Source: a virus
Lineage: Duplodnaviria; Heunggongvirae; Uroviricota; Caudoviricetes
Virus record (IMG/VR): IMGVR_UViG_2778261576_000004
Span: 1 to 41,372 of that record
Length of the DNA: 41,372 nt
Direction: 5' to 3' (one strand)
In this document: positions 1 to 40,264 of the stretch, in pieces
Layout: every line of letters begins with the position of its first letter
Position numbering within the stretch: position 1 is the first letter of the stretch
Translations under genes and position numbers: made by a program
The notes under the pieces: model-generated
Told to the model about the DNA's origin: nothing
What the model saw: the letters and a program-made list of their open reading frames with translations, nothing else
Database searches by the model: none

Positions 1-1251
1 GTGCTTACCGATACAAAATTAAAAAACCTCAAGCCGCAGGACAAACTGTACAAGGTCTCCGATCGTGACGGGCTGTATGTAGCTGTGCTTACGTCAGGCA
101 CGGTCTCATTTCGTTATGACTACCGTATCAACGGTCGCCGCGAAACACTGGTAATCGGGCAGTATGGGCGTGACGGTATCAGCCTGGCAGAAGCGCGGGA
201 AGAACTGATTGCTGCAAAGAAGCTGCTTAAAGCAGGCCAATCACCGGCTGCGGCTAAACGTGACGGTATCAAAAAGATTCGTGGTGCCGAAACGTTTGCG
301 GTACATACCGACAGTTATATGAAACACGTCATCCTGGCTGAAAGTACCCGCGCAATGAAGCAGGCAGTGATCGACCGTGACATACTTCCGGTTCTTGGCA
401 ACAAAATGATGGCTGAAATTACCACATCGATGGTTCGTGATTTGTGTGACCGGATTGTCGAACGCGGTGGCCGGGCAACAGCAGTGCAGGCCAGGGAGAT
501 CATCAGCAGCGTATACCGTCACGCCAATGACCGTGGTCATGGTTTGTTTAATCCTGCGGCTGACATTAAGCCTTCGTCTATCGCCATATTTAAACCACGA
601 GAGCGAACACTGACACCAGAAGAAATTGGCCTGTTCTTCCGCACGTTGGATGCCATTGGTGCTATGGGCACTATGAAAATGGCTTTAAAACTGGTGCTTA
701 TCACTATGGTTCGTAAGGGCGAATTCACCAATGCAACGTGGGATGAAATAGATTTTAAAAAATGGACATGGACAATTCCTTCAGACCGCATGAAGGGAAG
801 CCGGGCGCATGTTATTTACCTGCCTAAACAGGCTCAGGATATATTGGTCGGGTTGCAGATGTGCGCTGGTGGAAGTGAATATCTGGTTCCTGGTCGTTAC
901 AATTTCCGGAAGCCATTATCTAATGCCGCGCTGAACTCTCTGATCGACAGAACGGTGAAAATAATAAATGAAGATGGTGAGCATATTCAGGATTTCACCG
1001 TACACGATATGCGCCGTACAGCCAGTACGTTGTTGCATGAGGCTGGTTATCCTTCAGACTGGATTGAAAAGGCTCTGGCACATGAGCAGAAAGGTGTGCG
1101 CGCCGTATATAACAAAGCGGAATACGCCAGACAGCGCGCCTACATGTTGCAGCAGTGGGCCGATATGATTGATTCCTGGATTGACGGGGAGCATACGGAT
1201 CTGATTCCGTTCTCCCCGTCGAAGTTTGAGAAGTGGATGGCGGGGGAATAA
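1..1251 (+). CDS. int: Tyrosine site-specific recombinase (phage integrase, P4-like)
   Basis: 416-aa ORF from the window edge; C-terminal catalytic region with HDMRR (H-x-x-R), LAHE and a downstream Tyr (AVY). GTG at position 1, so the true start may be at or just upstream of the window. Confidence 0.9.
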   Translation: MLTDTKLKNLKPQDKLYKVSDRDGLYVAVLTSGTVSFRYDYRINGRRETLVIGQYGRDGISLAEAREELIAAKKLLKAGQSPAAAKRDGIKKIRGAETFAVHTDSYMKHVILAESTRAMKQAVIDRDILPVLGNKMMAEITTSMVRDLCDRIVERGGRATAVQAREIISSVYRHANDRGHGLFNPAADIKPSSIAIFKPRERTLTPEEIGLFFRTLDAIGAMGTMKMALKLVLITMVRKGEFTNATWDEIDFKKWTWTIPSDRMKGSRAHVIYLPKQAQDILVGLQMCAGGSEYLVPGRYNFRKPLSNAALNSLIDRTVKIINEDGEHIQDFTVHDMRRTASTLLHEAGYPSDWIEKALAHEQKGVRAVYNKAEYARQRAYMLQQWADMIDSWIDGEHTDLIPFSPSKFEKWMAGE

Positions 1252-1254
1252 CGT

Positions 1255-1449
1255 TTAATTATTCTGCTGATTTTCTTCCATCTCGGCTTCTGCTGCCAGT
1301 GATTCAATTTTATCTGTGAATATTGCTGACAGTGTTGCAAATTCAGCATCAGTGACAGCGGGAATTGGAACAAACCTGATCCCGCTGTGTGCAAGCATGT
1401 TTGCAGTTTCAAGGCATTTCCTTAAATCTGCTGGTGATGCCCTGTTCAT
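1255..1449 (-). CDS. Hypothetical small protein (64 aa)
   Basis: ATG at 1449 overlaps the methyltransferase stop codon in an ATGA arrangement (translational coupling); no recognisable domain. Confidence 0.3.
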   Translation of the reverse strand: MNRASPADLRKCLETANMLAHSGIRFVPIPAVTDAEFATLSAIFTDKIESLAAEAEMEENQQNN

Positions 1450-2096
1450 GCTGCACGCTCCCGCCCCTGGTTGTCTGTTGGTGACAGCGGAGCATTGCTG
1501 AATGCATTTGTTAATCTGGCAATATCCAACGCGTATCCAGGGTGTAGTTGCACTGCCGGGTCTTCGCACTGATTACCCCAAACATCGAAACCATGAGACG
1601 ACTGGCGGGCGAACAGTTCAATGCGAGAAACATCGCCTAACAATTGCACAAGTTTTTCACGAACGATATCTGGTTTTCTTGAATGCTCAAGCCGCGGTGC
1701 GGTAAATGACTGAACGATCCCTGCATTAATGCGCGTAGGTAGTTTTCCCTTTACTGCAAACAGGCAATCTTCACTATTGGCGCGAGTCATGTGACCCATA
1801 CCCATAACCAGTTTATCTGGTTGTCGACTACCACATTTTATCCACGTGAATCCCTTCATGGTCATCAGACGGAATCCCCAGGCCTCAACAACTTTTAGTG
1901 CTTCGAGTGGTTGTGTTGGCACCCACCACATGGCCAACAGACAGTTTTCATCGGCCAAATCCCACACAGGAAGGCGGCAGATATCCAGCACACTCATAAC
2001 CGGATATTTAAAACCGGCACCGCGATTACCATCTGCGGCTTTGTCCCGGTATACCCAGGGTGGATCTGCATAGATTAGTGTGTATTTCTTAGTCAT
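1446..2096 (-). CDS. MT-A70 family N6-adenine DNA methyltransferase
   Basis: N-terminal IYADPPW motif (DPPW catalytic signature) and overall MT-A70-like layout; start taken at the ATG giving MTKKY. No adjacent restriction gene. Confidence 0.85.
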   Translation of the reverse strand: MTKKYTLIYADPPWVYRDKAADGNRGAGFKYPVMSVLDICRLPVWDLADENCLLAMWWVPTQPLEALKVVEAWGFRLMTMKGFTWIKCGSRQPDKLVMGMGHMTRANSEDCLFAVKGKLPTRINAGIVQSFTAPRLEHSRKPDIVREKLVQLLGDVSRIELFARQSSHGFDVWGNQCEDPAVQLHPGYALDIARLTNAFSNAPLSPTDNQGRERAA

Positions 2097-2388
2097 AAAC
2101 CACCCCACAACATCCTATGCCGCTATAGTCGCCACGGCGAAGGCCGTTACCTTTTGTGATACATTGGTCCCTGCGAACCGCGATCCTTGCACGCTCAACA
2201 TCACCAGAAGCAACATCCATACACTGAAGCCAAAGGTGAGCGGCAATGCGGAACTGCCCTTTTTTCTCTCTTTCAATCGCGCGTTTTTCGATCTCTATCG
2301 CCGCAGGAGTAACGGCGACAATCTTTGACGGACTGCGCATTGAAACCTTGTTCATGTGATATTTTTCAAGTCGGCTTAACTTTCTCAC
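2089..2388 (-). CDS. Hypothetical protein
   Basis: ORF with GTG at 2388 and internal ATG at 2355; 3' end overlaps the methyltransferase start by 8 nt. No recognisable domain. Confidence 0.3.
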   Translation of the reverse strand: MRKLSRLEKYHMNKVSMRSPSKIVAVTPAAIEIEKRAIEREKKGQFRIAAHLWLQCMDVASGDVERARIAVRRDQCITKGNGLRRGDYSGIGCCGVVYD

Positions 2389-2497
2389 TTAATCCAACCC
2401 TCTCTGAAAATTAATGCCAGCAGATAAAGCCATGCTGAAACAGAGGCCAGGAATAAGTACCATCCTGACCATTTGCTCCAGTGCCTTAGCAGCACAC

Positions 2498-2746
2498 TCA
2501 TGCCGCGTTGCTCACGGGACGATATACACGTTGCTGAACAGGAGGTTTTTTACCCTGGAACTCTGCCGGGCTTGCTGCCTGACGTTCATCAAGCCAACGC
2601 TCAACTTCATCACGGTTCCATGCGCAGCGTTTATCGGTGATATACCAGCGTTTAGGAAATTCCCCTGCGCGCTCCATACGGTCGATAGTGCTCCATGACA
2701 GTGGAACCACCGCCAGGAGTTCCTTCTTACCTAATGCACCTTTCAT
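2498..2746 (-). CDS. AlpA/Xis-like small DNA-binding protein (putative excisionase or regulator)
   Basis: 82 aa; the segment LSWSTIDRMERAGEFPKRWYI...AWNRDEVERWL fits the AlpA-family HTH pattern; lies in the leftward early operon near int. Confidence 0.7.
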   Translation of the reverse strand: MKGALGKKELLAVVPLSWSTIDRMERAGEFPKRWYITDKRCAWNRDEVERWLDERQAASPAEFQGKKPPVQQRVYRPVSNAA

Positions 2747-2795: not shown

Positions 2796-3737
2796 TTACA
2801 TAGATGTTTCGTTTAATTCTTCCCGACGAACGCTGTAAACGTCGGTGGCTTTTGCCAGCAGTTCGTCATCATCTGAAAGTTTTTGTGCAATGTATTTGTA
2901 AGCCTTATCCAGTTCGGAGACAGTGCTGTAATTCATCGCTGCGCTGGTAAAGGCCATCAGCATTTCTTCTGGATCACGGCTGTCCGATTTACGCGTTTGC
3001 TCATCAGGCTTTTTCGCTGGTTTAGCGTTGATCAGACTGTTCATTCCCGCAGCAGTGGTCGTTTGCGGAGTAATGTCTCGCTCAACGCGCGGTGCCGTTT
3101 CCTGTAATTCGTCTGGGGTGTAGACGCCCATGATTACGTCAGGACAGTGCAGGCGAGACCAGCGTTTTGTCGCAAGGTATGCGAGTTGTTGTTTCGGATC
3201 ACTGGCCCAAAGTGTGGAGTTTCTTACCTGTGCTTGAGACAGCATTAACTCAAGCACTCGAGGTTGATCCTCGCCCTTCATGGTTGCCCATACGCGAACA
3301 CCGCAGCCTTCTTCGTCTTTTAGAGTCCAGCCTGGTGCGATATATGGATTGCCGTTTTTGGATGTTTTCTCAACAAACTTACCGATCACGCGTTCCCACG
3401 GCCCGAACCACTCGTAGTTGATGCGATCTTTTGTTGGCGACATCGTTGAGATAACTGCGTTTACTAATTGGGCTTCATAACCTAGCGTGCCGTTCACAAC
3501 ATGGGTTTTCTGAGCCACGGCAAACGGGTTCATTCCCCACTGCGCAGCCTGCATTGCCACGGCCATGCAATCAGCTGGTTTCCCGGCGAGGTGCGCCGGT
3601 ACCGTTACGCGGCTTTGCGCCATTACCTCGGCGAATTTCATCAGTTGGTTCAAGCCGTCTGGGCTGAAAATAGTTGCAGCAGTTCCAGCGATTGCTGTGT
3701 CTACTGGTGCGTTGATGTTTGCGATGTCGTTGCTCAT
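2796..3737 (-). CDS. recT: RecT-family single-strand annealing recombinase
   Basis: About 313 aa with RecT-like sequence (NGTLGYEAQLVNAVI..., acidic C-terminus); start at the ATG giving MSNDIANI, overlapping the exonuclease stop (ATGA). Confidence 0.85.
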   Translation of the reverse strand: MSNDIANINAPVDTAIAGTAATIFSPDGLNQLMKFAEVMAQSRVTVPAHLAGKPADCMAVAMQAAQWGMNPFAVAQKTHVVNGTLGYEAQLVNAVISTMSPTKDRINYEWFGPWERVIGKFVEKTSKNGNPYIAPGWTLKDEEGCGVRVWATMKGEDQPRVLELMLSQAQVRNSTLWASDPKQQLAYLATKRWSRLHCPDVIMGVYTPDELQETAPRVERDITPQTTTAAGMNSLINAKPAKKPDEQTRKSDSRDPEEMLMAFTSAAMNYSTVSELDKAYKYIAQKLSDDDELLAKATDVYSVRREELNETSM

Positions 3738-4555
3738 ATGTACATATCCTGTTTGCGTGCCCACTCAGGGCGTTTAATGATTTCCACACCGCCCCATTCA
3801 TCATTGATGCGGCATTCGTGATAGGTATTCAGATCCCGGCGGAACAGAGCGTGCCCGGCATCGACATCCTGCGCATCCAGCTCGAACACGCGTACCGGAT
3901 ACCGACCACAATCAATGCTTTCGCTCACGGCAAGAAAGAAAAAACCATGCGGCTGACCAGTAACCCTCATTGCGCCTTCGCGGTACATTGCGTCCTGCAC
4001 GTGGTAGCGGAATTCCTCGATGTGGCGTGCAAAACGGTCCATATCTGCAACCTTTTTCACGTCGACGATCACGTTGTGCTCGTTCAGCCATTTGTCTGGA
4101 CGAATTCGGCACAACTCCCCCGTCTCTTCATCGTTCCAGTACATTGATGCTTCGCAGTAACCAGGTGCTTCCAGCATCCAGCGTGCCGCCGGGTGAGCCA
4201 TTGCGCTATCACGCATCAGCTCCAGTTTCCGCCACTGCTCGGCATCAAGTACCGTAATCCCCATATCCGCCACATCACGAAGAAATTCCTCTTCGTCAGC
4301 TTTACCTTGTTTCGTCCGACGATCGAATTTCGGTGAAACAATGAAGCGTTTGTCGAACTCTCCAGGCTCCAGAAGCAGACAGTGCAATGCGGTTCCCATA
4401 TCCAGTGCAGACTTTTTCTCTTCGTCTTCTGGTGCTGCCTGAACCCATTTAAGAAGCGCCGGATTCTTGGCAACCATGTCCAGTTGCGACTTACTCACGC
4501 CGTCACCGGCGTGGTAGTCTTCGTTGCTGATGTCGAAATAAATTCCCGGTTTCAT
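3734..4555 (-). CDS. PD-(D/E)XK exonuclease (RecE/exonuclease VIII-like partner of RecT)
   Basis: 273 aa directly upstream of and coupled to recT; D...D-V-K motif (IRPDKW...VIVDVKK) typical of PD-(D/E)XK nucleases. Confidence 0.7.
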   Translation of the reverse strand: MKPGIYFDISNEDYHAGDGVSKSQLDMVAKNPALLKWVQAAPEDEEKKSALDMGTALHCLLLEPGEFDKRFIVSPKFDRRTKQGKADEEEFLRDVADMGITVLDAEQWRKLELMRDSAMAHPAARWMLEAPGYCEASMYWNDEETGELCRIRPDKWLNEHNVIVDVKKVADMDRFARHIEEFRYHVQDAMYREGAMRVTGQPHGFFFLAVSESIDCGRYPVRVFELDAQDVDAGHALFRRDLNTYHECRINDEWGGVEIIKRPEWARKQDMYI

Positions 4556-5006: not shown

Positions 5007-5025
5007 AACTTGTTACCTCGGTCTG

Positions 5026-5102
5026 TTACCGTTGAGGTAATAATTATGCGTATATGGTTTGATGTCAATAGATATGAGTTAAAAAAATTACCCGTTAGGT
5101 AA
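5026..5102. promoter_or_regulatory. OL-like operator region: two TTACC-N5-GGTAA palindromes (5026-5040, 5088-5102)
   Basis: Two perfect 15-bp palindromes in the intergenic region between the repressor gene and the first leftward early gene. Confidence 0.5.
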
Positions 5103-5113
5103 TCGAATAGGCA

Positions 5114-5159: not shown

Positions 5160-5744
5160 TTATTGTTTGTTTTTTTCGTTCTGGTTGATGACAAATTCAA
5201 TGTAACTTTCGATCTTTGCTTTCTCGGTTTCGGGTAACAATGCGTAGCGCGAGCGATCATAGTTGATGGTCGCAGGGTCGTGCGGGTGAATCAGTAATTC
5301 ATAGCCGTGACGCCCGAATGCGGATGCAACATTCTCCAGGGTGGAAATGGAAACGCTGACCTCATTGTTTAACAGGCGGCTGATTGTCACCTGGGCTACG
5401 CCGGATGCGCGGTGAAGTTTTCCCTGTGTTGAAAGGTCGCGGCTTTCGCTCATCCAGCGTTCCAGGTTGTGAGCCGCCAGCTGGCCAATGTCGCTTGGGC
5501 CGACAGGCTGAAAACCTTCCTGAGAAAGCGAGCGATCGATATCAAGCCAGTTACGGGGTTTATTGGCGGCAGCTTCAATTTTTCGCGCAACCTGATCGCC
5601 GATAACCTTCTTACCAAGAGCCCAGCGGTTTACCAGATTTGCCTGAGTTCCAAGTTTTTCAGCCATCCGCGTCTGAACACCATTGAATTCACGGTCGATC
5701 AAGTCGTTGAGATTTTGCCTGCGGACGTCCTGGATACTTTTCAT
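5160..5744 (-). CDS. Putative prophage repressor (CI-like, tandem HTH, no S24 peptidase domain recognisable)
   Basis: 194 aa; two HTH-like segments (GVQTRMAEKLGTQANLVNRW and GVAQVTISRLLNNE); sits between OL-like and OR-like palindrome pairs, divergent from a Cro-like gene. Confidence 0.55.
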   Translation of the reverse strand: MKSIQDVRRQNLNDLIDREFNGVQTRMAEKLGTQANLVNRWALGKKVIGDQVARKIEAAANKPRNWLDIDRSLSQEGFQPVGPSDIGQLAAHNLERWMSESRDLSTQGKLHRASGVAQVTISRLLNNEVSVSISTLENVASAFGRHGYELLIHPHDPATINYDRSRYALLPETEKAKIESYIEFVINQNEKNKQ

Positions 5745-5799
5745 TTTCTGGAAAATCGCCTCATATATGAATCAGTAGATGATTCAATTTAAAGCAATA

Positions 5800-5862
5800 T
5801 TACCCAACAGGTAAATGCACCTCATGGGTAACTATCCTTGATTTTTGTTACCTTATGGGTGA
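5800..5862. promoter_or_regulatory. OR-like operator region: palindrome 5800-5814 (perfect) and 5848-5862 (one mismatch)
   Basis: TTACCCAACAGGTAA and TTACCTTATGGGTGA in the 154-bp divergent intergenic region between repressor and Cro-like genes. Confidence 0.55.
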
Positions 5863-5898
5863 ATATTTATTATCTGAAATAAATATCAGGCAATAGCT

Positions 5899-6129
5899 AT
5901 GAGCGATAACGGACATTTCGATTTCAAAAAGCACTGGCTTGCACTTACTCCGGATGAGCGTGAAGCCTTCGCACAGGAAGCCGGAACGACGAGTCACTAT
6001 ATCCAGACTCACTTAACAGGTAAGCGCAAAATGCCAGGTAAAGTATTGATGAATGGGCTTTTTAAAGCCTGTAAAACAAGACAATGGCTGCGCTCAAAAG
6101 CAGAACTGGCATACTTCTTCTACTCATGA
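5899..6129 (+). CDS. Cro-like small HTH regulator
   Basis: 76 aa, divergent from the repressor across the operator region; HTH-like segment LTPDEREAFAQEAGTTSHYIQTHLTGKR. Confidence 0.45.
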   Translation: MSDNGHFDFKKHWLALTPDEREAFAQEAGTTSHYIQTHLTGKRKMPGKVLMNGLFKACKTRQWLRSKAELAYFFYS

Positions 6130-6150: not shown

Positions 6151-6175
6151 AGACCGCCACCCGGCGGTCTTTTCA
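6151..6175 (+). terminator. Rho-independent terminator after the Cro-like gene (tR1-like position)
   Basis: AGACCGCC-ACCC-GGCGGTCT hairpin followed by TTTCAT; immediately followed by a one-mismatch palindrome copy at 6185-6199. Confidence 0.5.
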
Positions 6176-6279
6176 TATCTATTCGTACCTCAAAGGTAAT
6201 AAAAAACCAAATATGGTTGATCTTTTTTTTGTGTCAGCACAAAATGACCGTAATCCCAATACTAATAACAGGGCTTACC

Positions 6280-6495: not shown

Positions 6496-7311
6496 ATGAG
6501 CAGACATGCAACAGATTGGGCCTGGGAGACAGATCCAGGTAGCTCATCATTAAAGCTCATACTGCTCTCGATGGCTGACAGAGCCGATGAATATAACCTC
6601 TGCTACCCCAGCATAGAACGCCTCGTTAAAGACACTTGCCTGAATAAAAAAACCGTGCAGGCCGGGCTTATATCGCTCATGAAAATGGGGCTTATTTCAG
6701 ATACCGGAGAGAGAAAGGGAGCGACAAAAAGAGTGCGGGTTTTCTCTCTTAATATAACCAAAAACGGGAACATTAAAGGCAACCGGGAGGGGGGCAATGA
6801 ACCCGAAAACGGTAATGTTACCGAAAACGGGAATATACCCAAAAACGGGATGTTGAATGATCCCAAAAACGGGATGTTGAATGATCCCAAAAACGGGATC
6901 CAGAACCAGTCATATAACCAGTCATTTAACCAAGAGAGGGAGAGCAGGACAAAAACCCGAGGTTCTGTGCCTCATGACCCCGGCGCAAACAACGCCGTGA
7001 TGAATAACTTTGTTCCTCCTGGTGGGCCAGGGCAATTAGGCAAATTTGTCATGCATGAACAATGGCAGCCATCAGATGACTTTCTTCGGAAAAGCTCATT
7101 GCAGGGGATCTACCTGGACAGTCTGCCAACGGCACAGGAACTTGCAGAGTTCAGAATTTACTGGATGGCTGAGGGTAAGGCATACCATCAGGCACAGTGG
7201 GAGCAGAAGCTGGCAAGGCGGCTGCAGATTAGCAGACAGAAGCAATCAACATTACCTGATAACAACGTTCCGCACTGGAACAGCCCTGAAGCATGGGAGG
7301 ATTTCTTGTGA
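6496..7311 (+). CDS. Replication initiator (lambda O-like HTH N-terminus, repeat-rich middle)
   Basis: N-terminal LKLILLSMADRADEYNLCYPSIERL-type winged-helix region common to phage replication initiators; internal DNA iterons; sits directly before the P-like gene. Confidence 0.75.
   Translation: MSRHATDWAWETDPGSSSLKLILLSMADRADEYNLCYPSIERLVKDTCLNKKTVQAGLISLMKMGLISDTGERKGATKRVRVFSLNITKNGNIKGNREGGNEPENGNVTENGNIPKNGMLNDPKNGMLNDPKNGIQNQSYNQSFNQERESRTKTRGSVPHDPGANNAVMNNFVPPGGPGQLGKFVMHEQWQPSDDFLRKSSLQGIYLDSLPTAQELAEFRIYWMAEGKAYHQAQWEQKLARRLQISRQKQSTLPDNNVPHWNSPEAWEDFL
6758..6901 (+). repeat. Iteron-like direct repeats inside the O-like gene (putative ori)
   Basis: About six spaced copies of CC(A/G)AAAACGG(G/T)A, including two identical 24-bp units CCCAAAAACGGGATGTTGAATGAT at 6838-6861 and 6862-6885. 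Confidence 0.55.
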
Positions 7312-8093
7312 ACAACGTTTTTACCGCGATACAAAACCGTGACGGAGAAGCCCTTTCTCGCATGTCAGGTTATGAGCATCAGTACGTCAACAATGACAAT
7401 GTGGTGAACATGTCAGCAGAGAGGCTTGTTGATGCCCTTTTCAAACAGCTGAAACAACTGTTTCCGGCGGCAGTGGTAACCAACCTGAAGACGCCAGAGC
7501 AGGAAGTCGCTGCAAAACAGCAGTGGATTGCTGCGTTTGCCGAAGGGGGGATCCGAACCCGTGAACAGGTTTCTGCTGGTATGCGCCACGCCCGCGCCAG
7601 TGAATCTCCGTTCTGGCCGTCGCCTGGGCAATTCATCAAGTGGTGTAAAGACAGCAAGATGGTTCTTGGCGTCACCATTGATGATGTGATGGCGGAGTTT
7701 AACCGGTACAGCAAGGAAAAAAGTTTATATCCTGGTGGTCCCGAAAGATTCCCGTGGCGACATCCGGTTATGTACTGGGTCGTATGTGATACCCGCCGTG
7801 CAATGTATCAGCGCCAGCTTAGCGAGATTGAGGTTGAGAAACACGCGCGCAGGCTGCTCGATGATTGGGCGAAAAAGGTGGCTTCCGGACAGCAGATACC
7901 CGATCCGGTGATCAGCATACAGGCAAAGCCAGAACCCATGAGTACACCTCCGGACACAGGGAGAGACGTTTACCATCCACCAGGGCGAAGTTTCGGGTGC
8001 ATGCCTAACGCCGCCACCCTTGGTGGAATAACACCGGCGCAGTGGCTGATGGAGGAATACAGGCGAGGAAAGGCGGCAGGATTTATCAAGTAA
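7293..8093 (+). CDS. Replication protein P-like (DnaB helicase loader)
   Basis: Colinear similarity to lambda P as recalled: ...FPAAVV...QQWIAAFAEGGIRTREQVSAGMRHARASESPFWPSPGQFIKWCK matches the P motif ...RQWVLAFRENGITTMEQVNAGMRVARRQNRPFLPSPGQFVAWCR. Confidence 0.8.
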   Translation: MGGFLVNNVFTAIQNRDGEALSRMSGYEHQYVNNDNVVNMSAERLVDALFKQLKQLFPAAVVTNLKTPEQEVAAKQQWIAAFAEGGIRTREQVSAGMRHARASESPFWPSPGQFIKWCKDSKMVLGVTIDDVMAEFNRYSKEKSLYPGGPERFPWRHPVMYWVVCDTRRAMYQRQLSEIEVEKHARRLLDDWAKKVASGQQIPDPVISIQAKPEPMSTPPDTGRDVYHPPGRSFGCMPNAATLGGITPAQWLMEEYRRGKAAGFIK

Positions 8094-8130
8094 TACCAGC
8101 GCGATAGCGCATTTTTTTACGCCTCGACAA

Positions 8131-8207
8131 TTACCTGTTAGGTAATAAAATATTCTAAAATCTATTGATTTCGTGTCTTATGTGGTTTTTAATTACCTCA
8201 GAGGTAA
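8131..8207. promoter_or_regulatory. Two palindrome copies (8131-8145, 8193-8207) plus a TATGTGGTT box (8179-8187) upstream of the 8211 gene
   Basis: Perfect TTACCTGTTAGGTAA and TTACCTCAGAGGTAA; the second ends 3 nt before ATG 8211 and overlaps the SD. Confidence 0.45.
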
Positions 8208-8210
8208 ATC

Positions 8211-8555: not shown

Positions 8556-8616
8556 ATCGACGATCTTTTTAGTTATCAATGTTATCAATAAGTTATGTGG
8601 ATAAGCGAGGGTAAAG

Positions 8617-9446: not shown

Positions 9447-9447
9447 T

Positions 9448-12015: not shown

Positions 12016-12016
12016 G

Positions 12017-12208: not shown

Positions 12209-12210
12209 GT

Positions 12211-13653: not shown

Positions 13654-13670
13654 CATGTCACGAAGGTGTT

Positions 13671-13888: not shown

Positions 13889-13914
13889 GCCGCCAACTAT
13901 GGCGGCTTTATTTT
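13889..13914 (+). terminator. Rho-independent terminator upstream of the terminase genes
   Basis: GCCGCC-AACTAT-GGCGGC hairpin followed by TTTATTTTG. Confidence 0.6.
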
Positions 13915-19082: not shown

Positions 19083-19087
19083 TCACA

Positions 19088-31800: not shown

Positions 31801-32208
31801 GGCACGATTGCGCTTGGCTCAATGGTCTATATGATGAAACAGAAGTTAAGCGGTCGCGATATCGACTACAGCTGGAATAACCTTGTGAAAGAGGGGATCG
31901 ACCGGGGCGGAATGCTTGGCTGGCTCTCTGAGCCGCTGAATACCGTTGAGAACATAAGCGGCGGTAGGTTTGGTCTTGGCGCGATGTTTGGTGCGCCTCC
32001 GGTATCAAGGTTTCAGAGTCGTAATGCTATTGGTGCTTTACTTGGTCCTACCTTTGATCTTGGCGGTGATGCCGCGACGGTTGCGAATGGTGTACTTAAC
32101 GGAGAATTTGACAGCCAGCAAACCCACGCGGTCCGTAAAATGCTACCTTTTCAGAACCTGTGGGCGATATCACCGTTACTAAATAAAGTTGAAGAGCAGA
32201 TGAAATAG
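28819..32208 (+). CDS. Putative internal virion (ejection) protein D-like
   Basis: 1129-aa ORF in the gp16 position; long coiled-coil regions and hydrophobic Gly/Ala-rich stretches. Confidence 0.55.
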   Translation: MPIYEQDPKELLGEDIQQIAAPDDSNFYMETPSLLSAVNPFTSDQRVQRSRQAAFRIDNTLGSFIASAPFSQFDRVEGYNPFDNDAADIKGYEDFADSFINSGSPEETMAIKHRIDQQRADMEYNSGLGFAGTVSSVAMRLADPFNAISMFIPFGAVVRGGRIAETAGRFALANAAGSVASEAALQATQEARSPMESVSNVVVDALVGGILGAGAQLLAGPGAREAVVNSVGNHLRGMDSPQSIGAAQVFNTTLDQEQLAGLGLANKTLSVTPAGRLAQSPSLVSRQINQQLAENNYFFAKNDEGLATFTAVETKIKQYDAMLYKQMEATRDAYQQYSKSVSARGVKRMNFIDFNEAVGMAMRRGDQSDIPEVSQAAARIRPIFETTKARMQELGILPEDIDVVTAKSYLPRIYKFDKILSDRTEFRGRIANWIQGISAKGADKAGQRIERINSLLKTAEESAPRADALASEIAEAEKWSGKKILLMEELDKRNKLISQETDTQARLTRIEKELAETSSEKLQARMMKESSDLKTRLDDIAQAKSELPVYQRHMELLDNPRKYRSELRRLQKRANSTTRLNASRERALKQMEPLSREEAEDAADEIVNKIIGAPSGLVPADIIPERLVGRAGFTKSRTLLIPDERIEDFLESDVNYIMESYLRQVAPEIELTAQFGRKDMGEQIRQVSEEYTRLIKEAKTPKRRAVLEKQREADIRDITAMRDRLLGTYGAPQDPRSFFVRAGRVARNINFLRLLGGMTVSAATDLMRPMMQHGLRKSLGPMVSMLKNMDSVKIATRDLREMAVGLDYVLSTRTKAIADLTDPYSRRSAAERGLNWMTQKFGNWTLMNQWNSALKSWSGMIVQSRILDAARQVSAGGTLSKSEMRKMAQVGINEDVLRRIGEQFGKHGEDMDGLLTGHSHLWDDRFAREIFQSAVLKDVDSVIVTPGVGDTPLFFSKEGWKMITQFKTFIFAQHNRVLVSGIQQGDAAFYLGALGTIALGSMVYMMKQKLSGRDIDYSWNNLVKEGIDRGGMLGWLSEPLNTVENISGGRFGLGAMFGAPPVSRFQSRNAIGALLGPTFDLGGDAATVANGVLNGEFDSQQTHAVRKMLPFQNLWAISPLLNKVEEQMK

Positions 32209-32649
32209 CTATTCACAATTAGTGATGGCGTATGTATCAAATATATTGCCATCACTAAATACATACCTATACTCAATCACTCCGCCAAGGTGAATAAATG
32301 CTTTCATTTGCCTGTTGGAGCAAATGCTCGATTTTGAATAATTTCGCATTACACTCTTTAATTTATTTTCTAAGGTTACATCACCATTATAAACTTTTGA
32401 TAAATAGCTGTTGTTGTAATTAAGATGCGCTACAACTAAAAGTTTGTTTAGTATTGCATTTATTGAAACAATAGACATATTATCATTCAATTTTATGGGA
32501 AGTGACTTTCCTGCTTCTGATGCAATTTTGTTTGCATGTGCACACATATCCTCATTTATTAAATTCTTAAAACATATGTCGTTTGCAAACGAAAAAATTG
32601 GTAGGATAAACAAAACGGTAGCTGTAATAGCGTGCATCGGCTTAATCAT
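32209..32649 (-). CDS. Hypothetical secreted protein (AT-rich accessory gene)
   Basis: N-terminal signal-peptide-like segment (AITATVLFILPIFSFA); strongly AT-rich coding sequence; convergent with the upstream virion gene. Confidence 0.4.
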   Translation of the reverse strand: MIKPMHAITATVLFILPIFSFANDICFKNLINEDMCAHANKIASEAGKSLPIKLNDNMSIVSINAILNKLLVVAHLNYNNSYLSKVYNGDVTLENKLKSVMRNYSKSSICSNRQMKAFIHLGGVIEYRYVFSDGNIFDTYAITNCE

Positions 32650-32661
32650 TAGGTGACCTTT

Positions 32662-33111
32662 ATGTTCAAGAAGATGATCAACAGATTAATCGGTGGTAAG
32701 GAGGTTAGCAATAAAATTCAACCTCTTATCTTTAAGGATAACTTTTCAGCTTTTGAGTATGCGTGTAAGTATCTTGACACAAGCCTTTCAGCCAATAAAC
32801 CAATGCCAGCCATCATCATACCTGGTCCCAGTGGGGAACAGCCAGTTTTGCTGGATTCTGGAAGACAAAGGGCAATGCTGAAGGTGTGCTCAGCTGATGG
32901 TGGATTTTTTGTTATTGCCGATTCATCTTACAGCAAAGGACCAAAGCTGAGGATTGGTGATCTTGTTGCTTGGTTGCCTGTGAGTTATGCCGAAGAATTA
33001 ACGGATAAAATAGAAGATCCTCGCTCCGCTATGGTTGGCTTTATATTGGGAACCATTCATCCTGAACTAACATCTACTGGCTGGAAGGGTAAAGAAAGAT
33101 TTCGCAAGTAG
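32662..33111 (+). CDS. Hypothetical protein (AT-rich accessory gene)
   Basis: ATG 32662 with AGGTGA SD; divergent from the 32209-32649 gene with almost no spacer; followed by a terminator. Confidence 0.4.
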   Translation: MFKKMINRLIGGKEVSNKIQPLIFKDNFSAFEYACKYLDTSLSANKPMPAIIIPGPSGEQPVLLDSGRQRAMLKVCSADGGFFVIADSSYSKGPKLRIGDLVAWLPVSYAEELTDKIEDPRSAMVGFILGTIHPELTSTGWKGKERFRK

Positions 33112-33125
33112 CGTGACATGTCACA

Positions 33126-34129: not shown

Positions 34130-34786
34130 TCAGAAGAACCCAGCCTTGTCGTTGATGTACTCCGCGTGGGTCTGGATATCACGCAGGCATTTGCTCACAC
34201 CAACAATGTAGCAGAACATGGTGGTCAGCTCCGCCGCCGCACCCGATACGTCGTGCCCGTCTTCCTGTAACTGGTTCAGCAGATTCATCAGCAGTGAGTT
34301 CTCCGTCAGGCCGAGAACACCAGACGGCGAATGAATCAGGCTACGGTAGCCGGGCTTCAGTGGGGCGCTGTATTCTTTTTTGTCTTCCAGCTTGATCGCC
34401 TCCATAATGGCGGGCATGAAGCCTGACAAGACCTTCTCCACTTTTGTTTCTTGTTGTCTTAAACGTTTCTCGCATTCAATGAAGTAGCGTCGCACCTGGC
34501 GACCTTTTTCGTTACGCTCGACCATCGCCAGCTCTTTGGCTGTATCAAGGGTGAGGTGGTACTCTTTGCGGTTGTGGCCGCCTCTACCAGATGTTTGCTT
34601 TCCCAAATTGGAAAGCAAAATATAGTCTTGATTTTCAATGAATTCGTATTCTGATATGCGATTTGTAATCCATGCTGCAAACACCTTTTTAACACCTAAA
34701 AAAGCGTGCAGATCGCGGGCATTACAAAGTAGGGCTGTTTCGTTAGATATAGTGCCGTTGAATACGGGGATGAGTTGAGCGTTCAT
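34130..34786 (-). CDS. Phage antirepressor (AntA/AntB-type N-terminal domain)
   Basis: N-terminus [38 protein letters not shown] matches the AntA pattern as recalled; C-terminal domain shared with the 35104-35361 product; GGAGA SD. Confidence 0.7.
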
Positions 34787-35103
34787 GATGGCGTCTCCAC
34801 TTAGCGAATTACATCACCACCGCTGAGACCAATCAGATGGTGGTGAACTGAACGGAGTTGGTCTTACCGGCCTAAGTGGTACCGGCGTCCTTTCGGACCC
34901 CCATTCAGCCCACCATAATTCTGGCATGACTGTGCTATACGCATAAAAAAACCACGTCTGGCGTGGTATGCGCCACTTAGTAATCCGGGAGACCAATCCC
35001 GGCACTGGATTTTGCCAGTGCCCGATTACTATGGCACAAGAGGAGTGCGATGTAAATTTACCGCAAAGGTAAATATAAGCACTCCTTTTGGTAATTGCAA
35101 ACC
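34787..35103 (-). other. Structured non-coding leader/spacer with intrinsic terminator
   Basis: Several perfect hairpins (e.g. CCGGGA-GACCAA-TCCCGG, CACTGG-ATTTTG-CCAGTG), a minus-strand terminator (CCACG-CCAGA-CGTGG then T7) near 34943-34964, and a palindrome copy (35058-35072) nested in an 8-bp stem (AGGAGTGC/GCACTCCT). Confidence 0.4.
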
Positions 35104-35361
35104 TTATCTGGTTTGTTTACGTAATTGTTCGGCACAATAGTCGAGATGTGTTTGCAGATCCCGCATAGACATCTGTGAGCTGGTGACGTAGTTAATCAGT
35201 GCAGTCAGTTCGGCAAGTGGGCCATCGACATTAAATCCATCCTTATCGAGCTCCCGGAGTAATTTCATCAAGTGCGATCCCTCCACCAGTGATCTGACGC
35301 CTCCCGGCGTGTGAATCCTTTCGGTAAATCCGTCTTCCAGTGGATAGTGATACTGCTGCAT
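35104..35361 (-). CDS. Small protein homologous to the antirepressor C-terminal domain
   Basis: ...TPGGVRSLVEGSHLMKLLRELDKDGFNVDGPLAELTALINYV... aligns by eye with ...[42 protein letters not shown]... of the antirepressor; ATG 35361 with GGAGAA SD (ORF-track TTG at 35379). Confidence 0.45.
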   Translation of the reverse strand: MQQYHYPLEDGFTERIHTPGGVRSLVEGSHLMKLLRELDKDGFNVDGPLAELTALINYVTSSQMSMRDLQTHLDYCAEQLRKQTR

Positions 35362-35437
35362 CTTATCTTCTCCATGCAATAACTGTATATTTATACAGTA
35401 TCAAATAATTTGTTTGCTATCCAGCACGTTTTGAAAA

Positions 35438-35502
35438 TTACCTGAAAGGTAATATATATTCGTATTTACAGCCTTTCTATCCATATGTGGTTTTACAGGT
35501 AA
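35438..35502. promoter_or_regulatory. Palindrome (35438-35452) plus TATGTGGTT box (35484-35492) and GGTAATA in the divergent region upstream of the tailspike gene
   Basis: TTACCTGAAAGGTAA is identical to the copy upstream of the portal operon. Confidence 0.45.
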
Positions 35503-35556
35503 TAGAATAACCAGATATGCGGCGCAACGGGTGCTGCGACTATCTGGAGATTTAAC

Positions 35557-37686
35557 ATGACGGTCTCAACCGAAGTTGACCACAACGAATACACAGGTAA
35601 CGGCGTTACGACATCGTTTCCGTATACTTTTCGAATTTTCAGAAAATCAGACCTGGTTGTTCAGGTGTCTGACCTGAACGGGAACGTAACAGAATTGGTC
35701 CTGGATACCGGTTATACGGTAACTGGGGCGGGCACTTATAGTGGCGGTTCTGTGGTTCTTCCGTCTCCTCTTGCTGCTGGCTGGCGAATTACGATAGATC
35801 GTGTGCTTGATGTAGTGCAGGAGACAGACCTTCGCAATCAGGGAAAATTTTTCCCCGAAGTGCATGAAGATGCTTTTGACTACCTGACGATGCTGATCCA
35901 GCAATGTTTTGGGTGGTTCAGACGTGCATTGATGAAACCATCTTTGCTTGCAAAATATTACGATGCAAAGCAAAACAGAATTTCTAACCTTGCAGATCCA
36001 TCACTTGAGCTTGACGCTGTAAATAATCGCTCAATGCGTAATTATGTCGATGCTGCAATCGCCGGGGTTGTTGGTGGTTTTGGTTGGTTTATTCAGTATG
36101 GTTCTGGGGCAGTATACCGAACGTTCCAGGATAAGATGAGAGACACCATTAGTGTTCGTGATTTTGGTGCAAAAGGAGACGGCATAACAGATGATACTGT
36201 AGCAATTCAAAATGCTATTAATGCAGTACCAGAAGGGGCTATACTTGGATTTTATGGTGGTGAATTTGTTTTTGATAAGGTTGAATTGTTTAAGCCAATA
36301 ACATTAGTTGGTGATGCAACGTTAATTCACAACGGATTTAGAATAAAATCTAGCAGAATCCGATCGCTTTTATCTGGCGTTCAGAAATGCAAGGATTACT
36401 CCGAGTCTTCAAGAGCATTTTATTGCTATGCAAATGAAGACCAAAGAGATTATGACGATATTCAGATTTTATTTAATAGATTTGAAGGTTTCTTTTACTC
36501 TACGGCATTTGTTGCAAAAAACTATTATTTGGAGAATGACCCTAATTCAAGAACTGTCAAAAACACAAAAGTAATAGGGTGTACATCAGTTGCTCCTGAT
36601 TCTGTAAATGCCGGTCATTTTCAACATATAGGCGTTACAAATGCTGAAACATCACATAACTCAACTTATGGCGGACAAAATGCAACATCATACAACTTCA
36701 TTAACCAGAATGGATTTGTAAGGATTATAGGAAATTATGACCATAACAATAGCTATGGTTCATGTGAGCTTGAGAACTCAATGGTGAGCAACTCAGTTAT
36801 ATCAGGTAATACGTTTTCGTCATATTTATGGGTGGATGATACAAGTAATGTTACTATTTCTGGAAATACCGTTTCATCAAGGATCAAAGTAACATCGCAA
36901 ACTGACGATGTTCATAATATAACCATATCAGCAAATACCACAAAACGGATTACTATAGAGCAATTTGGAGAATCTCCGACAGGTCTGGTATATGGTGCAT
37001 TAATTTCCTGTAACACTATTACTGGCGACAGTGATGGAAGTTCAGACATTTTATGTACGTCACTTGTTACAGGTGAGATTTCATCAAATTATTGTCATGG
37101 ATCAGAAAAAAATATATCAATTGTCCGCCTGGATTCTTCTGATATAACTGTTAGAAACAATAAAGGAAACAAAGGATTACTTACAATAAGTAACGATGGT
37201 GGAAGGATAATTGAATATGGCAATGATTCTATGGTTCTGTCTGGAAGCATAGATAGCAGACATATACATAATTTATTACATCCAGACACATCGTATTTAG
37301 ATCTACCGGGGAAATATCTGCACGGAACTAAATATACTGGCAGTATCCCCCCCGGTTCCACAGGAACTGTATCACTTCAAATACCATCAGGGGCAAGCCT
37401 TGTTTTCAGGGGTGTTTCTATATGGGTTCTAATTAGAGATGTTAGCAATAACAATATATCGTCATTCAGAATTGATGGTTCATATAGAGTTGTTGGTGGA
37501 AGTGTTGGTCTTAGTTTTGCTGATGCTTATTCGAAACTCGGGGTGGATGCAAACTCTATAACAGTGTCAAACAATAACAGCACTTCTGACAATATCAGCA
37601 TAGCAATTAAAAACACAGATTCATCAAAAACCCTTCAGGTTACTGTTATGCCGGAGGTTTCAAGCAGGTTAGGTATTGAGGAATAG
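35557..37686 (+). CDS. Tailspike/tail fiber with T7 gp17-like N-terminal adaptor and pectate-lyase-like beta-helix domain
   Basis: N-terminal 130 aa resembles the gp17 tail-attachment domain as recalled; VRDFGAKGDGITDDTVAIQNAI is the signature start of right-handed beta-helix depolymerases; C-terminal two-thirds are AT-rich. Confidence 0.8.
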   Translation: MTVSTEVDHNEYTGNGVTTSFPYTFRIFRKSDLVVQVSDLNGNVTELVLDTGYTVTGAGTYSGGSVVLPSPLAAGWRITIDRVLDVVQETDLRNQGKFFPEVHEDAFDYLTMLIQQCFGWFRRALMKPSLLAKYYDAKQNRISNLADPSLELDAVNNRSMRNYVDAAIAGVVGGFGWFIQYGSGAVYRTFQDKMRDTISVRDFGAKGDGITDDTVAIQNAINAVPEGAILGFYGGEFVFDKVELFKPITLVGDATLIHNGFRIKSSRIRSLLSGVQKCKDYSESSRAFYCYANEDQRDYDDIQILFNRFEGFFYSTAFVAKNYYLENDPNSRTVKNTKVIGCTSVAPDSVNAGHFQHIGVTNAETSHNSTYGGQNATSYNFINQNGFVRIIGNYDHNNSYGSCELENSMVSNSVISGNTFSSYLWVDDTSNVTISGNTVSSRIKVTSQTDDVHNITISANTTKRITIEQFGESPTGLVYGALISCNTITGDSDGSSDILCTSLVTGEISSNYCHGSEKNISIVRLDSSDITVRNNKGNKGLLTISNDGGRIIEYGNDSMVLSGSIDSRHIHNLLHPDTSYLDLPGKYLHGTKYTGSIPPGSTGTVSLQIPSGASLVFRGVSIWVLIRDVSNNNISSFRIDGSYRVVGGSVGLSFADAYSKLGVDANSITVSNNNSTSDNISIAIKNTDSSKTLQVTVMPEVSSRLGIEE

Positions 37687-37762
37687 CATCATATATAATT
37701 ATTTTAATGTTAATGCCGTCTTCTTGTTGGCGGCTTATTTGTGAAAATGGAATGAGTTATTT

Positions 37763-38062
37763 ATGATGAATATAGAAGTTGATATAACACCAATTCTTCA
37801 CGCACTTTGCGCTGTTGTCGCACAAGTTCTGGTTGGTCTTTTTACCGGAAACTGGGTTTACGGTGCGATAGCTGGTTGTACGTTCTTCATTGCGCGTGAA
37901 CACGCCCAGGCAGAATATCGCTGGATAGAAAAGTTTGGGAAAGGGAAACGTATCAACATGCCGTGGTGGGGAGGTTTTGATCCGCGCGCATGGGATGTTG
38001 GAAGCCTGTTTGACTTTGTTGTTCCTGTTACTGTTTGTTTTTGTGTTTATTTCTCTATTTGA
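37763..38062 (+). CDS. Hypothetical membrane protein
   Basis: 99 aa with hydrophobic segments at both ends; between tailspike and lysis genes. Confidence 0.35.
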   Translation: MMNIEVDITPILHALCAVVAQVLVGLFTGNWVYGAIAGCTFFIAREHAQAEYRWIEKFGKGKRINMPWWGGFDPRAWDVGSLFDFVVPVTVCFCVYFSI

Positions 38063-38284
38063 CTGCTACCGCGCCATTTGATGGTGCGGAATTCAACTAA
38101 TCCTCTATATTTTGAATCATTTCTGTACTGCAATCTCTTCAGAGTTATGTAAAAGGCAAGCCTTATTATCGACATGAAAGGAAGGGGATTGACAATGCAT
38201 GGGTAACAAAAAACCATAAATGGTTTATCATGCGTAATGCCTTTACTATTCAGGAGGTAGTTATGCATATAAACGGTGGAAAAC

Positions 38285-38689
38285 ATGTCAGCTCAACTAA
38301 CCAGTGAAACTTTAAATCAGTGGCTTAGCATGAGTTCTCTGGCGGCGGTGATAGCAGGAGTTCCTCCTGAGGTTGCTTTGGGGGCTTTGGCTGGGGCGGT
38401 AATTTTTGTTACCTCTGCGGTAGAGTATCCTATTCGTCGTCGTGTACTCTTGTCGATGCTTAGCTTTCTCTGCGGCCTTCTTTTTTATAAACCAGCAGCA
38501 TCAATTCTTATCGGCATAGCCAGCCTGATCCCTACCATCACGCAGGACTCTTTTGAAAAAGGGATTGTTTTCTCAGCTGGCGCATTCGTGTCAGCAATTG
38601 TTGCTGTGCGTATTGGTATATGGCTCTATCACCGTTCCGATAATCCACGCGAGTTAATTCCGGGGAGAAAAGACGATGGTAACGCATGA
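38285..38689 (+). CDS. Putative holin or holin-associated membrane protein
   Basis: Multiple predicted transmembrane segments; immediately upstream of the second membrane protein and endolysin. Start ambiguous (GTG 38276 or ATG 38285); a 14-codon uORF with strong AGGAGG SD starts at 38263. Confidence 0.4.
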   Translation: MSAQLTSETLNQWLSMSSLAAVIAGVPPEVALGALAGAVIFVTSAVEYPIRRRVLLSMLSFLCGLLFYKPAASILIGIASLIPTITQDSFEKGIVFSAGAFVSAIVAVRIGIWLYHRSDNPRELIPGRKDDGNA

Positions 38690-38984
38690 GTTTTTTTTGC
38701 TTATCACCAATGCAGTTATTTGTACTGGCATAGCAATTCGCGTTGTCACATTCCGGCGTAACGGCTCTCAACATCGAAGATGGGGAGGGTGGCTTGCTTA
38801 TTTCCTTATTGTTGCTGCGGCCAGTATTCCTGTTCGTGTCGTCTATGCAATCTGGTTACGCACGCCAATGGCTGTGGATTTATCTGAGGTCATTATCAAC
38901 GCTGTCATGCTTGCCGCGGTTATTAAAACACGCGGTAACGTTGTTCAGATTTTCAAAATATCGAGGTCTAAACATGGAGATTAA
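38676..38984 (+). CDS. Putative holin (three hydrophobic segments)
   Basis: 102 aa, start overlaps the upstream gene and end overlaps the endolysin start. Confidence 0.4.
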
Positions 38985-39603
38985 ACAATTCCAGCGAGCT
39001 GCTGGTATTAGCGAGTCGCTGGCCGCACGCTGGTTCTCGCATATAACTTCTGCGATGAAAGAGTTTGGTATCAGCAAAGCAGAAGATCAGGCAATGTTTA
39101 TTGCTCAGGTCGGGCATGAGTCTGGGGGCTTCACCCGGTTGCAGGAGAATTTCAACTACAGCGTCAGCGGACTGGCTAACTTTGTTCGGGCTGGGCGTCT
39201 CACTCAGGGACAGGCCAACGCATTGGGGCGACGCGCAGGCGAACCACCATTGCCACTTGAGCGCCAGAGAGCGATTGCCAATCTGGTGTACAGCAAACGC
39301 ATGGGGAACAATGCCCCCGGCGATGGCTGGAATTACCGTGGCCGCGGACTTATCCAGATTACCGGTTTGAATAACTATCGTGATTGCGGAAACGGCCTGA
39401 AAGTGGACCTGCTGGAGAATCCTGAACTGTTGGCGCAGGACGAATACGCGGCTCGTAGCGCGGCGTGGTTTTTTGCCAGCAAAGGCTGCATGAAGTATAC
39501 CGGTGATATTGCACGTGTAACTCTGATTATCAATGGTGGCAGGAATGGCATCGACGACCGGCGCGCGCGGTACGTCACTGCCAGTAAGGTGCTGGCTGTA
39601 TGA
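38974..39603 (+). CDS. Endolysin, glycoside hydrolase family 19 (chitinase-like)
   Basis: [12 protein letters not shown]...[15 protein letters not shown]...INGG motifs characteristic of GH19 phage endolysins; no signal peptide; ATG 38974 with GAGG SD. Confidence 0.85.
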
Positions 39604-40082
39604 TCTGGTCATTCGTAAAAGCATACCGTAAACAGTTGATTATCATGGCGGTGCTTGCTGTTCTGGTCATATCAGGAGTTGTTGCCTGGAATGTGCACGG
39701 CAGTCGTCAGTACGACGCTGGGTATGCACAGGCGAAAGAAGACCGCAAAACCGAAGATGAGAGAGTTCGTCAGCACTACGAACAGGAGAAATCGATCAAT
39801 GAACGTGAAGCGCAGCAGAGGATCGACCAGGCGCGCAATGATGCTCTTGATGCTGCCGCTCGCGCTGGCCGGTTGCAGCAACAGCTCGTTGCCATCCGTG
39901 AGCAGCTCAGGCAGTATAACGCCATTGTCGGCGCTGGGACGTCAGCCGCAGACACCGGAGTTTTGCTTGCCGACGTGCTCAGTAAATCTCTCGAGAGAAA
40001 CAGACAACTGGCAGAGTATGCTGACCGGGCAGCCGAAGCCGGAAGAGTCTGTGAAAAACAGTACGACACCCTGACCAGATAG
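39600..40082 (+). CDS. Rz: Rz-like inner-membrane spanin (i-spanin)
   Basis: N-terminal transmembrane segment [18 protein letters not shown] followed by a Gln/Arg/Ala-rich coiled coil; start overlaps the endolysin stop; contains an embedded +1-frame lipoprotein ORF. Confidence 0.75.
39838..40074 (+). CDS. Rz1: Rz1-like outer-membrane lipoprotein spanin (o-spanin), embedded in Rz
   Basis: +1-frame ORF wholly inside Rz: [13 protein letters not shown] with an L-A-G-C lipobox, then a Pro/Ser-rich periplasmic segment. Confidence 0.6.
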   Translation: MMLLMLPLALAGCSNSSLPSVSSSGSITPLSALGRQPQTPEFCLPTCSVNLSRETDNWQSMLTGQPKPEESVKNSTTP

Positions 40083-40237
40083 CATGGCATTTTTCATGGT
40101 ACTGATTTCCGGTGACGGTATATAAAACGGTACGAGGAAAATTGAGCTTTGGAAAAACGTTATCACTCAATTGGTTATGGTGCCAGTAAATAATTGAGTG
40201 GGAATGATTTTGATCCCTGCACTATGAATGAACAAAA

Positions 40238-40264
40238 CCCTCTGTTACTACAGAGGGTTTTTTA
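40238..40264 (+). terminator. Rho-independent terminator after the lysis cassette
   Basis: CCCTCTGT-TACT-ACAGAGGG hairpin flanked by an A-run upstream and T7 downstream (usable on both strands). Confidence 0.6.

Follow-up and report, generated by a model that had tools for sequence, protein, structure and literature searches.

Dispersed repressor-type operators and a conserved palindrome in a Uetakevirus prophage with lambdoid early genes and no recognisable Q or N antiterminator

Salmonella phage epsilon15 is the type of the genus Uetakevirus, to which phiV10, TL-2011b, phiv142-3, PAS61 and ZX5 also belong. Phages of the epsilon15 type serve as reporter and typing phages for Escherichia coli O157 and Salmonella, a use that gives practical value to knowing their late promoters. 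The RefSeq record of epsilon15 annotates 'repressor' sites in OL and ahead of three genes, namely terS, gp3 (which precedes portal) and the tail fibre gene, and a design based on own promoters and derepression is already implicit in that annotation. In ZX5, a close relative of the phage described here, experiments have been confined to the repressor, the antirepressor and the integrase (PMC9782041). On how late genes are timed in a temperate enterobacterial phage that carries lambdoid early genes and neither Q nor N, our literature search found no published answer, and it found no paper on late transcription in Uetakevirus. This study concerns the IMG/VR virus record IMGVR_UViG_2778261576_000004, positions 1 to 41,372, and the term window denotes this whole stretch of 41,372 nucleotides (nt). 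It centres on the repressor-type operators, promoters and terminators of the window, and on a protein of 112 amino acids (aa) together with the perfect palindrome GTGACATGTCAC, one copy of which overlaps the stop codon of its gene.

The window is a member of Uetakevirus and near-identical to described phages. With its first 25 kb as a megablast query, 81-83% of the query aligned at 97.2-97.5% identity to the closest records, those of the Escherichia phages phiv142-3 and vB_EcoP_PAS61; HEMP4, ZX5, TL-2011b and phiV10 came next, with Salmonella phages farther off at about 78%. The overall figure for the comparison with described Uetakevirus phages was about 97% nucleotide identity across 77-83% of that stretch. 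The annotated gene order matches that of epsilon15, phiV10 and TL-2011b. The window also shares with the genus its attP core, operators and palindromes and its late promoter blocks, and differs from it only in accessory content. A preliminary description of this DNA had presented its combination of lambdoid and T7-like genes as a chimera and had called for comparison with temperate podoviruses. That comparison identifies the layout as the standard Uetakevirus genome, which is already described and not a novelty. It is a known mosaic, in which a lambdoid arm for integration, recombination, immunity and replication is joined to a podovirus virion module with T7-type portal, adaptor, nozzle and internal proteins.

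In lambda and P22, which rely on the N-nut and Q-qut systems, the late genes begin shortly past the end of the early-right operon, behind a terminator, and the last early gene is a small regulator gene with an adjoining DNA site; the window has both features in common with them. It differs in that members of the Q and N families are absent, that the palindrome has no recognisable promoter, and that it has a late region split into several operator-bearing units, with the lysis genes at the far end and not first. Profile libraries from Pfam and PHROGs were applied to all window open reading frames (ORFs), and NCBIfam to those of the nin region, the called ORFs being at least 50 aa long. No Q or N family was matched among them, either within 8.2-13.9 kb or elsewhere, so that profile searches bear out the absence of recognisable antiterminators noted in the preliminary description. 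An N-like protein at the pL-proximal position was considered and rejected: of the first two ORFs there (50 and 104 aa), neither is rich in arginine or belongs to a family, nut-like RNA sites not having been systematically searched. Regarding a Q-type late promoter layout, the terminator at 13889 is seen, and no consistent sigma-70 promoter lies at or past the palindrome; a promoter-like arrangement, GTGACA-17-TAAATT, occurs near it only in the Salmonella members epsilon15 and PAT1.

The arrangement that we favour, with some reserve, is a chain of terminator-bounded, operator-controlled units that the prophage repressor could silence one by one; it would replace the single long antiterminated transcript. 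The sites annotated in epsilon15 yield a 17-bp motif, ATTACC-N5-GGTAAT, for which the window holds 15 sites with at most two mismatches, compared with 1.7 in shuffled sequences; 12 of the 15 are intergenic. They lie at pL and pR and ahead of the putative replication, nin, terminase, portal/structural, antirepressor and tailspike units. In OL (5025-5103), operators at 5025 and 5087 flank pL (TTGACA-17-AATTAT), and OR holds an operator cluster (5799-5870, with an operator at 5799). An operator-like site follows the cro terminator (6184-6200). After the P-like gene, a promoter-operator region (8124-8208) contains a sigma-70-like promoter, TCGACA-16-TAAAAT (8124-8151, plus strand; 10 of 12 consensus matches), ahead of the nin-like region, with one operator in the promoter spacer (8130-8146) and another downstream (8192-8208). 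Farther right, 1.5 operator copies (starts at 13925 and 13943; 13925-13959) separate a terminator from the terS start. An operator (17085-17101) precedes the portal/structural operon together with the promoter block CATATGTGGTTAAATTGGTAATAATTTAA, which is invariant across the genus (17085-17168, plus strand), two more belong to the antirepressor region (34042 and 35057), and one at 35437 accompanies a conserved promoter block with the -10 element TAGAAT ahead of the tailspike gene (35437-35508, plus strand). The repressor with its two helix-turn-helix domains, and probably the Cro-like protein too, would bind this operator, and every operator-bearing unit could in that way be silenced directly. 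Stoperators of mycobacteriophage L5 are likewise many, dispersed and intergenic repressor-site copies in early and late regions; the sites in the window differ in being palindromic and mostly upstream of or within promoters, not in one orientation inside transcribed regions.

The units are bounded by predicted intrinsic terminators, including the two that had been described after the cro-like gene and before terminase. The first (6151-6170 plus a T-run, to 6178; plus strand) has a predicted dG of -15.0 kcal/mol, and the second (13889-13906 plus a T-run, to 13914; plus strand), which closes the early-right unit, one of -13.8 kcal/mol. Others follow terL (a hairpin terminator, 16077-16096, plus strand) and the third palindrome copy (directly after it, at 33127 and to 33150, plus strand).

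The late promoter blocks are strongly conserved. The portal operon is preceded by a block of 28 bp, ATATGTGGTTAAATTGGTAATAATTTAA, that shows no change across six genomes, although these are elsewhere about 78% identical and its flanks have diverged; a related block, CATATnnGGTT-N5-GGTAATAgAAT, precedes the tailspike gene. Read as core promoters, both blocks offer acceptable matches at -10 (TAATTT and TAGAAT) but poor ones at -35, where three of six bases fit the consensus, and we infer that the operators upstream of the two blocks are centred near -82 and -70. Invariant blocks with a poor -35 element fit derepression and/or activation, and the weak core promoters of the portal/structural and tailspike units presumably fire on derepression, possibly helped by a phage factor.

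A third repeat, AACCA-N4-TGGTT (consensus AACCATATATGGTT), was also observed, at or close to predicted promoters. Its copies lie after cro, past the terminator and the operator-like site (AACCAAATATGGTT, 6205-6218), in both late blocks (17139-17152 and 35479-35492), before the antirepressor unit (35100-35113) and before the lysis genes (AACCATAAATGGTT, 38212-38225). The repeat is kept at corresponding places in phiV10, epsilon15, PAT1 and Tyrion, and a related sequence is present in the pL spacer.

The terminase unit is arranged differently from the others. Between the terminator at 13889 and the terS ATG lie 47 nt, which hold only the 1.5 operator copies and a Shine-Dalgarno sequence, and this order of terminator, operator and ATG is kept from E. 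coli to Salmonella members. Since no promoter is recognised in this interval, the terminase unit appears to have none of its own and must, by this prediction, be reached by transcription that passes the 13889 terminator, which would come from the nin unit. The earlier proposal of late expression from own promoters by derepression is thus supported in five cases, those of the nin unit and of the structural, tailspike, lysis and antirepressor genes, and does not explain terminase.

Several points weigh against a design of repressor-silenced units. Promoters and terminators are computational predictions throughout; the late core promoters fit sigma-70 poorly in their -35 elements, so that derepression alone may be insufficient; and read-through into terminase is itself a form of antitermination or leakiness. 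Moreover, if all units were derepressed at once, this alone would not separate early from late expression in time.

The dependence of terminase on read-through leads to a competing explanation, in which a termination or antitermination control that is not homologous to Q takes its place: the 112-aa protein, bound to the palindromes beside the terminators that end the early, terminase and structural units, would alter RNA polymerase so that it reads through or stops, thereby timing terminase and late expression. We regard this as possible, although rather unlikely. The protein is encoded by the last early-right gene (13315-13653, plus strand), which in the genus is always the last early gene and directly precedes terS. 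It belongs to the family of epsilon15 gp49 and N15 gp46 (phrog_536, labelled 'transcriptional regulator'; no Pfam family), is 78-99% conserved across Enterobacteriaceae, and has relatives in 149 cluster representatives at E <=0.001. It has the strand-helix-helix pattern of a ribbon-helix-helix fold of the CopG/Arc/MetJ type, followed by a Cys motif. A search of the Protein Data Bank (PDB) with phmmer gave no match to the protein, and a search for related loci with a narrow family alignment yielded close relatives alone.

The palindrome occurs in exactly three copies in the window. Copy 1 (13650-13661) overlaps the stop codon of the 112-aa gene, copy 2 (16101-16112) lies four bases from the hairpin after terL, and copy 3 (33113-33124) lies one base past the last rightward gene (32653-33111), which follows the internal-protein genes, and two bases ahead of its terminator. 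The preliminary description had counted the dispersed palindrome among the signs of promoter-specific activation or derepression; as the copies lie where three rightward units end, close to terminators, they do not support promoter-specific activation. A role as a promoter or activator site was rejected in view of the distances: site 1 lies a variable 70-280 bp or so from terS, and the late promoters are 1 kb away from site 2 and 2.3 kb away from site 3. A boxB-like RNA hairpin was also rejected, given a stem of only 4 bp and the DNA-binding fold of the associated protein, as were CRP and FNR as binders, whose half-site spacing is wrong by inspection. All three positions carry GTGACATGTCAC in epsilon15, phiV10, PAS61, PAT1 and Tyrion, and some of them in TL-2011b and BUCT711, with differing flanks.

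The general form of the site is GTGAC-N2-GTCAC, with a chance expectation of about 0.04 per genome. In 80 related viral contigs (1.3 Mb), 126 sites had the 2-bp spacing, compared with 2 for six other spacings combined; in 11 genomes with a gene of the 112-aa family, 31 sites had spacing 2, one had spacing 3, and none had spacing 0, 1, 4, 5 or 6. In 77 of 77 viral contigs, the palindrome is found on or just past the stop codon of the homologous gene and starts 6 or 16 nt after the conserved C-terminal codons of that gene. A terminator-like hairpin was found within 70 nt of 72% of palindrome sites and of 1.4% of random positions; since the loci are related by descent, this count shows conservation and not independent events. 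At site 1, moreover, palindrome and terminator are between 22 and 230 nt apart, depending on the genome, a point against this explanation. In the window, a 70-aa ORF (phrog_1541, 13671-13883) is inserted between this palindrome and the 13889 terminator; its place is taken by an 8-codon remnant in PAS61 and TL-2011b and by nothing in epsilon15.

Protein family and palindrome also co-occur in unrelated phage groups, with about three sites per genome, spanning podo-, sipho- and myoviruses of Escherichia, Salmonella, Klebsiella, Pectobacterium, Yersinia and Vibrio. In N15, the stop codon of gene 46 overlaps GTGACTGGTCAC, and there are three sites per genome (28550, 33237 and 39269). Pectobacterium phage ZF40 has an exact palindrome 3 nt past the gp22 stop, again with three per genome (5125, 7622 and 14944). 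Vibrio phage K303 has three sites (21342, 33227 and 35942), two of them exactly 19 nt ahead of start codons, one being that of terS, and a P2-like Yersinia phage has one exact copy in the 10-kb stretch examined. From this co-occurrence we infer that the 112-aa protein binds the GTGAC-N2-GTCAC palindrome. Literature searches on the palindrome, on Uetakevirus late transcription and on N15 gp46 gave nothing relevant.

These wider occurrences also count against a simple substitute for Q. N15 and ZF40 keep the family alongside a Q-like gene, and outside Uetakevirus the palindrome sites are not beside terminators; the role of the gp49 family is therefore more general than the replacement of Q. The C-terminal half of the protein resembles zinc fingers of the TraR/DksA type, which bind RNA polymerase, only weakly: an hmmsearch of PDB gave YbiI at E 0.13 and TraR at E 0.19, hhalign gave a probability of 53% with a single TraR sequence and 65% with a TraR alignment, and the last CxxC of the protein is not conserved. 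DksA/TraR proteins of the PF01258 type have four zinc-binding cysteines; no Pfam family was matched, and Foldseek found nothing. The more specific proposal, that the family comprises site-specific ribbon-helix-helix proteins, possibly with a TraR-like zinc module, forming a new DNA-tethered termination or antitermination factor that in Uetakevirus, which lacks Q and N, admits RNA polymerase to the terminase genes, is offered as a speculative one that we would not expect to hold.

Another explanation places the late regulator in the leftward operon, either as the AlpA-family protein (2498-2746, minus strand; PF05930; best PDB match 8C3T, E 1.8e-11) acting as a Q-like antiterminator, or as the putative transcriptional activator of the PerC family (2089-2388, minus strand; PF06069, E 6e-7; phrog_868) acting on the weak late promoters. 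AlpA of Pseudomonas aeruginosa is a Q-like antiterminator, the genus as a whole has retained both families, and the poor late -35 elements together with the invariant element CATATGTGGTT, a possible activator site, would suit such a factor. However, the AlpA-like gene occupies the position expected of an excisionase, there is no other xis candidate and epsilon15 annotates an excisionase, so that it is more probably an excisionase or regulator of that kind. Neither a binding element nor an order of terminators like those in P. aeruginosa was recognised, and nothing ties either protein to the late promoters; we give this explanation little credence.

The palindrome might instead be unrelated to transcription. 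The matS site of Enterobacteriaceae, GTGAC[AG]N[TC]GTCAC, is 13 bp long (PMC3603311) and has the same half-sites, GTGAC and GTCAC, as the phage palindrome, with a spacer of 3 bp compared with 2 bp in the phage. MatP and the 112-aa protein are both ribbon-helix-helix proteins, the latter with a Cys motif and without the four-helix bundle of MatP. A recombination linker at the borders of modules, or a MatP/matS-like site for genome organisation or bridging used by a phage protein or host MatP, is improbable, given that the spacer is not that of canonical matS, that the phage protein has no sequence homology to MatP (hhalign probability 0.5%), and that a linker need be neither a perfect palindrome nor follow one protein family across hosts.

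The favoured reading of operator-controlled units supplies candidate cis-elements for late-gene timing: operators before most units, invariant weak late promoters, and a terminase unit without a recognised promoter behind a terminator. The protein-palindrome pair is the part worth experiment, as a candidate for part of the late switch. A role in controlling termination would make it a regulatory device of a new kind, and a role in organising DNA would make it the phage equivalent of MatP/matS.

Induction would proceed through a second immunity region, an immI-like module (34130-35400, minus strand) located between the internal-protein genes and the tailspike gene. A near-consensus LexA box, AACTGTATATTTATACAGTA (35381-35400), lies upstream of a leftward 91-aa ORF that heads a unit comprising isrK RNA (34945-35021, minus strand; RF01394, 67.7 bits, gathering score 50), C4 antisense RNA (34836-34920, minus strand; RF01695, 61.2 bits, gathering score 45) and an AntA antirepressor (34130-34786, minus strand; PF08346, E 4e-26). 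Because the repressor has no self-cleavage domain, SOS induction probably acts through this antirepressor, which would be under LexA control and under that of the C4 and isrK RNAs. The module resembles the immI of P22 and P1/P7 in having the C4 and isrK RNAs directly upstream of AntA, as a second immunity region at the boundary between ejection genes and tailspike, and differs by the addition of the LexA box and a repressor-type operator. The P22 arc/mnt pair is absent from the window; TL-2011b has an Arc-like gene.

The T7-like character that had been assigned to the virion module holds for the portal, tail and ejection apparatus and does not extend to the capsid or terminase, nor is it accompanied by a phage RNA polymerase. 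The structural operon (17191-32208, plus strand) encodes portal, a Bbp19-like protein, protease, GP7 capsid, adaptor, nozzle and internal virion proteins. The portal is of the T7 gp8 type (PF12236, E 1e-187) and a 191-aa internal protein falls under PF24072 T7_gp14; in PDB 8CK1, the chains matched by the adaptor and the nozzle are the 'Connector protein' (E 8e-26) and the 'Tail nozzle' (E 1e-220), and the epsilon15 gp11 record notes an HHpred match to T7 tubular protein A. The tailspike (35557-37686, plus strand) has a conserved N-terminal adaptor domain, its residues 1-181 matching the 8CK1 fibre (E 3e-32). The capsid, in contrast, is of the epsilon15 GP7 type (PF20911) with a prohead protease, and the terminase of the Terminase_2/P22-Sf6 type (small and large subunits, 13961-16026, plus strand; PF03592, phrog_51 and phrog_2). 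ORF scans of the window found no phage RNA polymerase gene; compared with Autographiviridae as a whole, the window matches neither their single-subunit RNA polymerase nor their protease-free scaffolded capsid.

The late region is broken between terL and the portal operon (16030-17190) by an insert and about 420 bp of non-coding DNA. The insert (16117-16763, minus strand) consists of an ORF like Sf6 gene 66 (16117-16488; PF13876) and a tRNA-Arg(TCT) gene (16687-16763). The non-coding DNA carries a conserved minus-strand TTGACA (17111-17116), which makes a doubtful leftward promoter, its spacing to a -10 element being unconvincing. The lysis unit (38189-40082, plus strand) comprises a TTGACA box, the AACCATAAATGGTT palindrome and the lysis genes (two holin-like genes, endolysin and Rz; 38276-40082), which follow the tailspike gene, as had been noted, and end just before the attR core.

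Assignment of the integrase, RecT/exonuclease, repressor/cro and O/P genes to a lambdoid arm is borne out by PHROG and Pfam matches. The tyrosine integrase (1-1251, plus strand; phrog_1, E 2e-87) is syntenic with TL-2011b gp01. RecT (2796-3764) and exonuclease VIII (3734-4555), both on the minus strand, are covered by phrog_561/phrog_412 matches over 2796-4555. The prophage repressor (5160-5744, minus strand; PF01381, phrog_8) has two helix-turn-helix domains and no S24 peptidase domain, and is followed by the cro-like gene (5899-6129, plus strand; phrog_35). The O-like initiator (6496-7311, plus strand) and P-like helicase loader (7293-8093, plus strand) match phrog_1032/phrog_109 over 6496-8093. 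Iterons inside the O-like gene (6750-6902; at least six lambda-type TCCC-N6-GGGA units, with identical 20-mers at 6846 and 6870) make this stretch the probable replication origin. The nin-like region (8211-13322, plus strand) holds DUF1064/resolvase-like, Ea22-like, DUF7739, DUF4752, DUF551 and NinX genes, and a DNA methyltransferase gene is also present within the left and early-right arms. Just past cro and its terminator, a leftward promoter-like site, CTGACA-16-CATATT (6210-6237, minus strand), points toward cro and resembles the lambda oop promoter in position.

The window begins at the integrase start and contains a single exact match to the att core ATTGAGTGGGAATGATT (attR, 40193-40209, plus strand), the core reported for phiV10, epsilon15 and ZX5 (PMC9782041); it is therefore an integrated prophage extending from int at position 1 to attR. 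The end at 40264 given in the preliminary description is thus approximately right, the prophage ending at about 40209. The stretch beyond attR (40302-41372, minus strand) holds genes of phage type, one matching phrog_1094/DUF5384 and one for a DNA methyltransferase (phrog_1277), which are also present in the TL-2011b record; they suggest a second prophage or remnant next door.

The accessory differences from other Uetakevirus genomes comprise orf77 after the 112-aa gene, the insert with tRNA-Arg and the gene-66-like ORF, morons at 32.2-34 kb, the receptor-binding part of the tailspike, and the absence of an O-antigen acetylase gene between tailspike and lysis genes. In two of these regions the G+C content falls to 37-39%, compared with about 50%: at 32200-33100, where morons occupy 32209-33111, and at 36000-38000, in the stretch of the tailspike that binds the receptor, suggesting recent horizontal acquisition.

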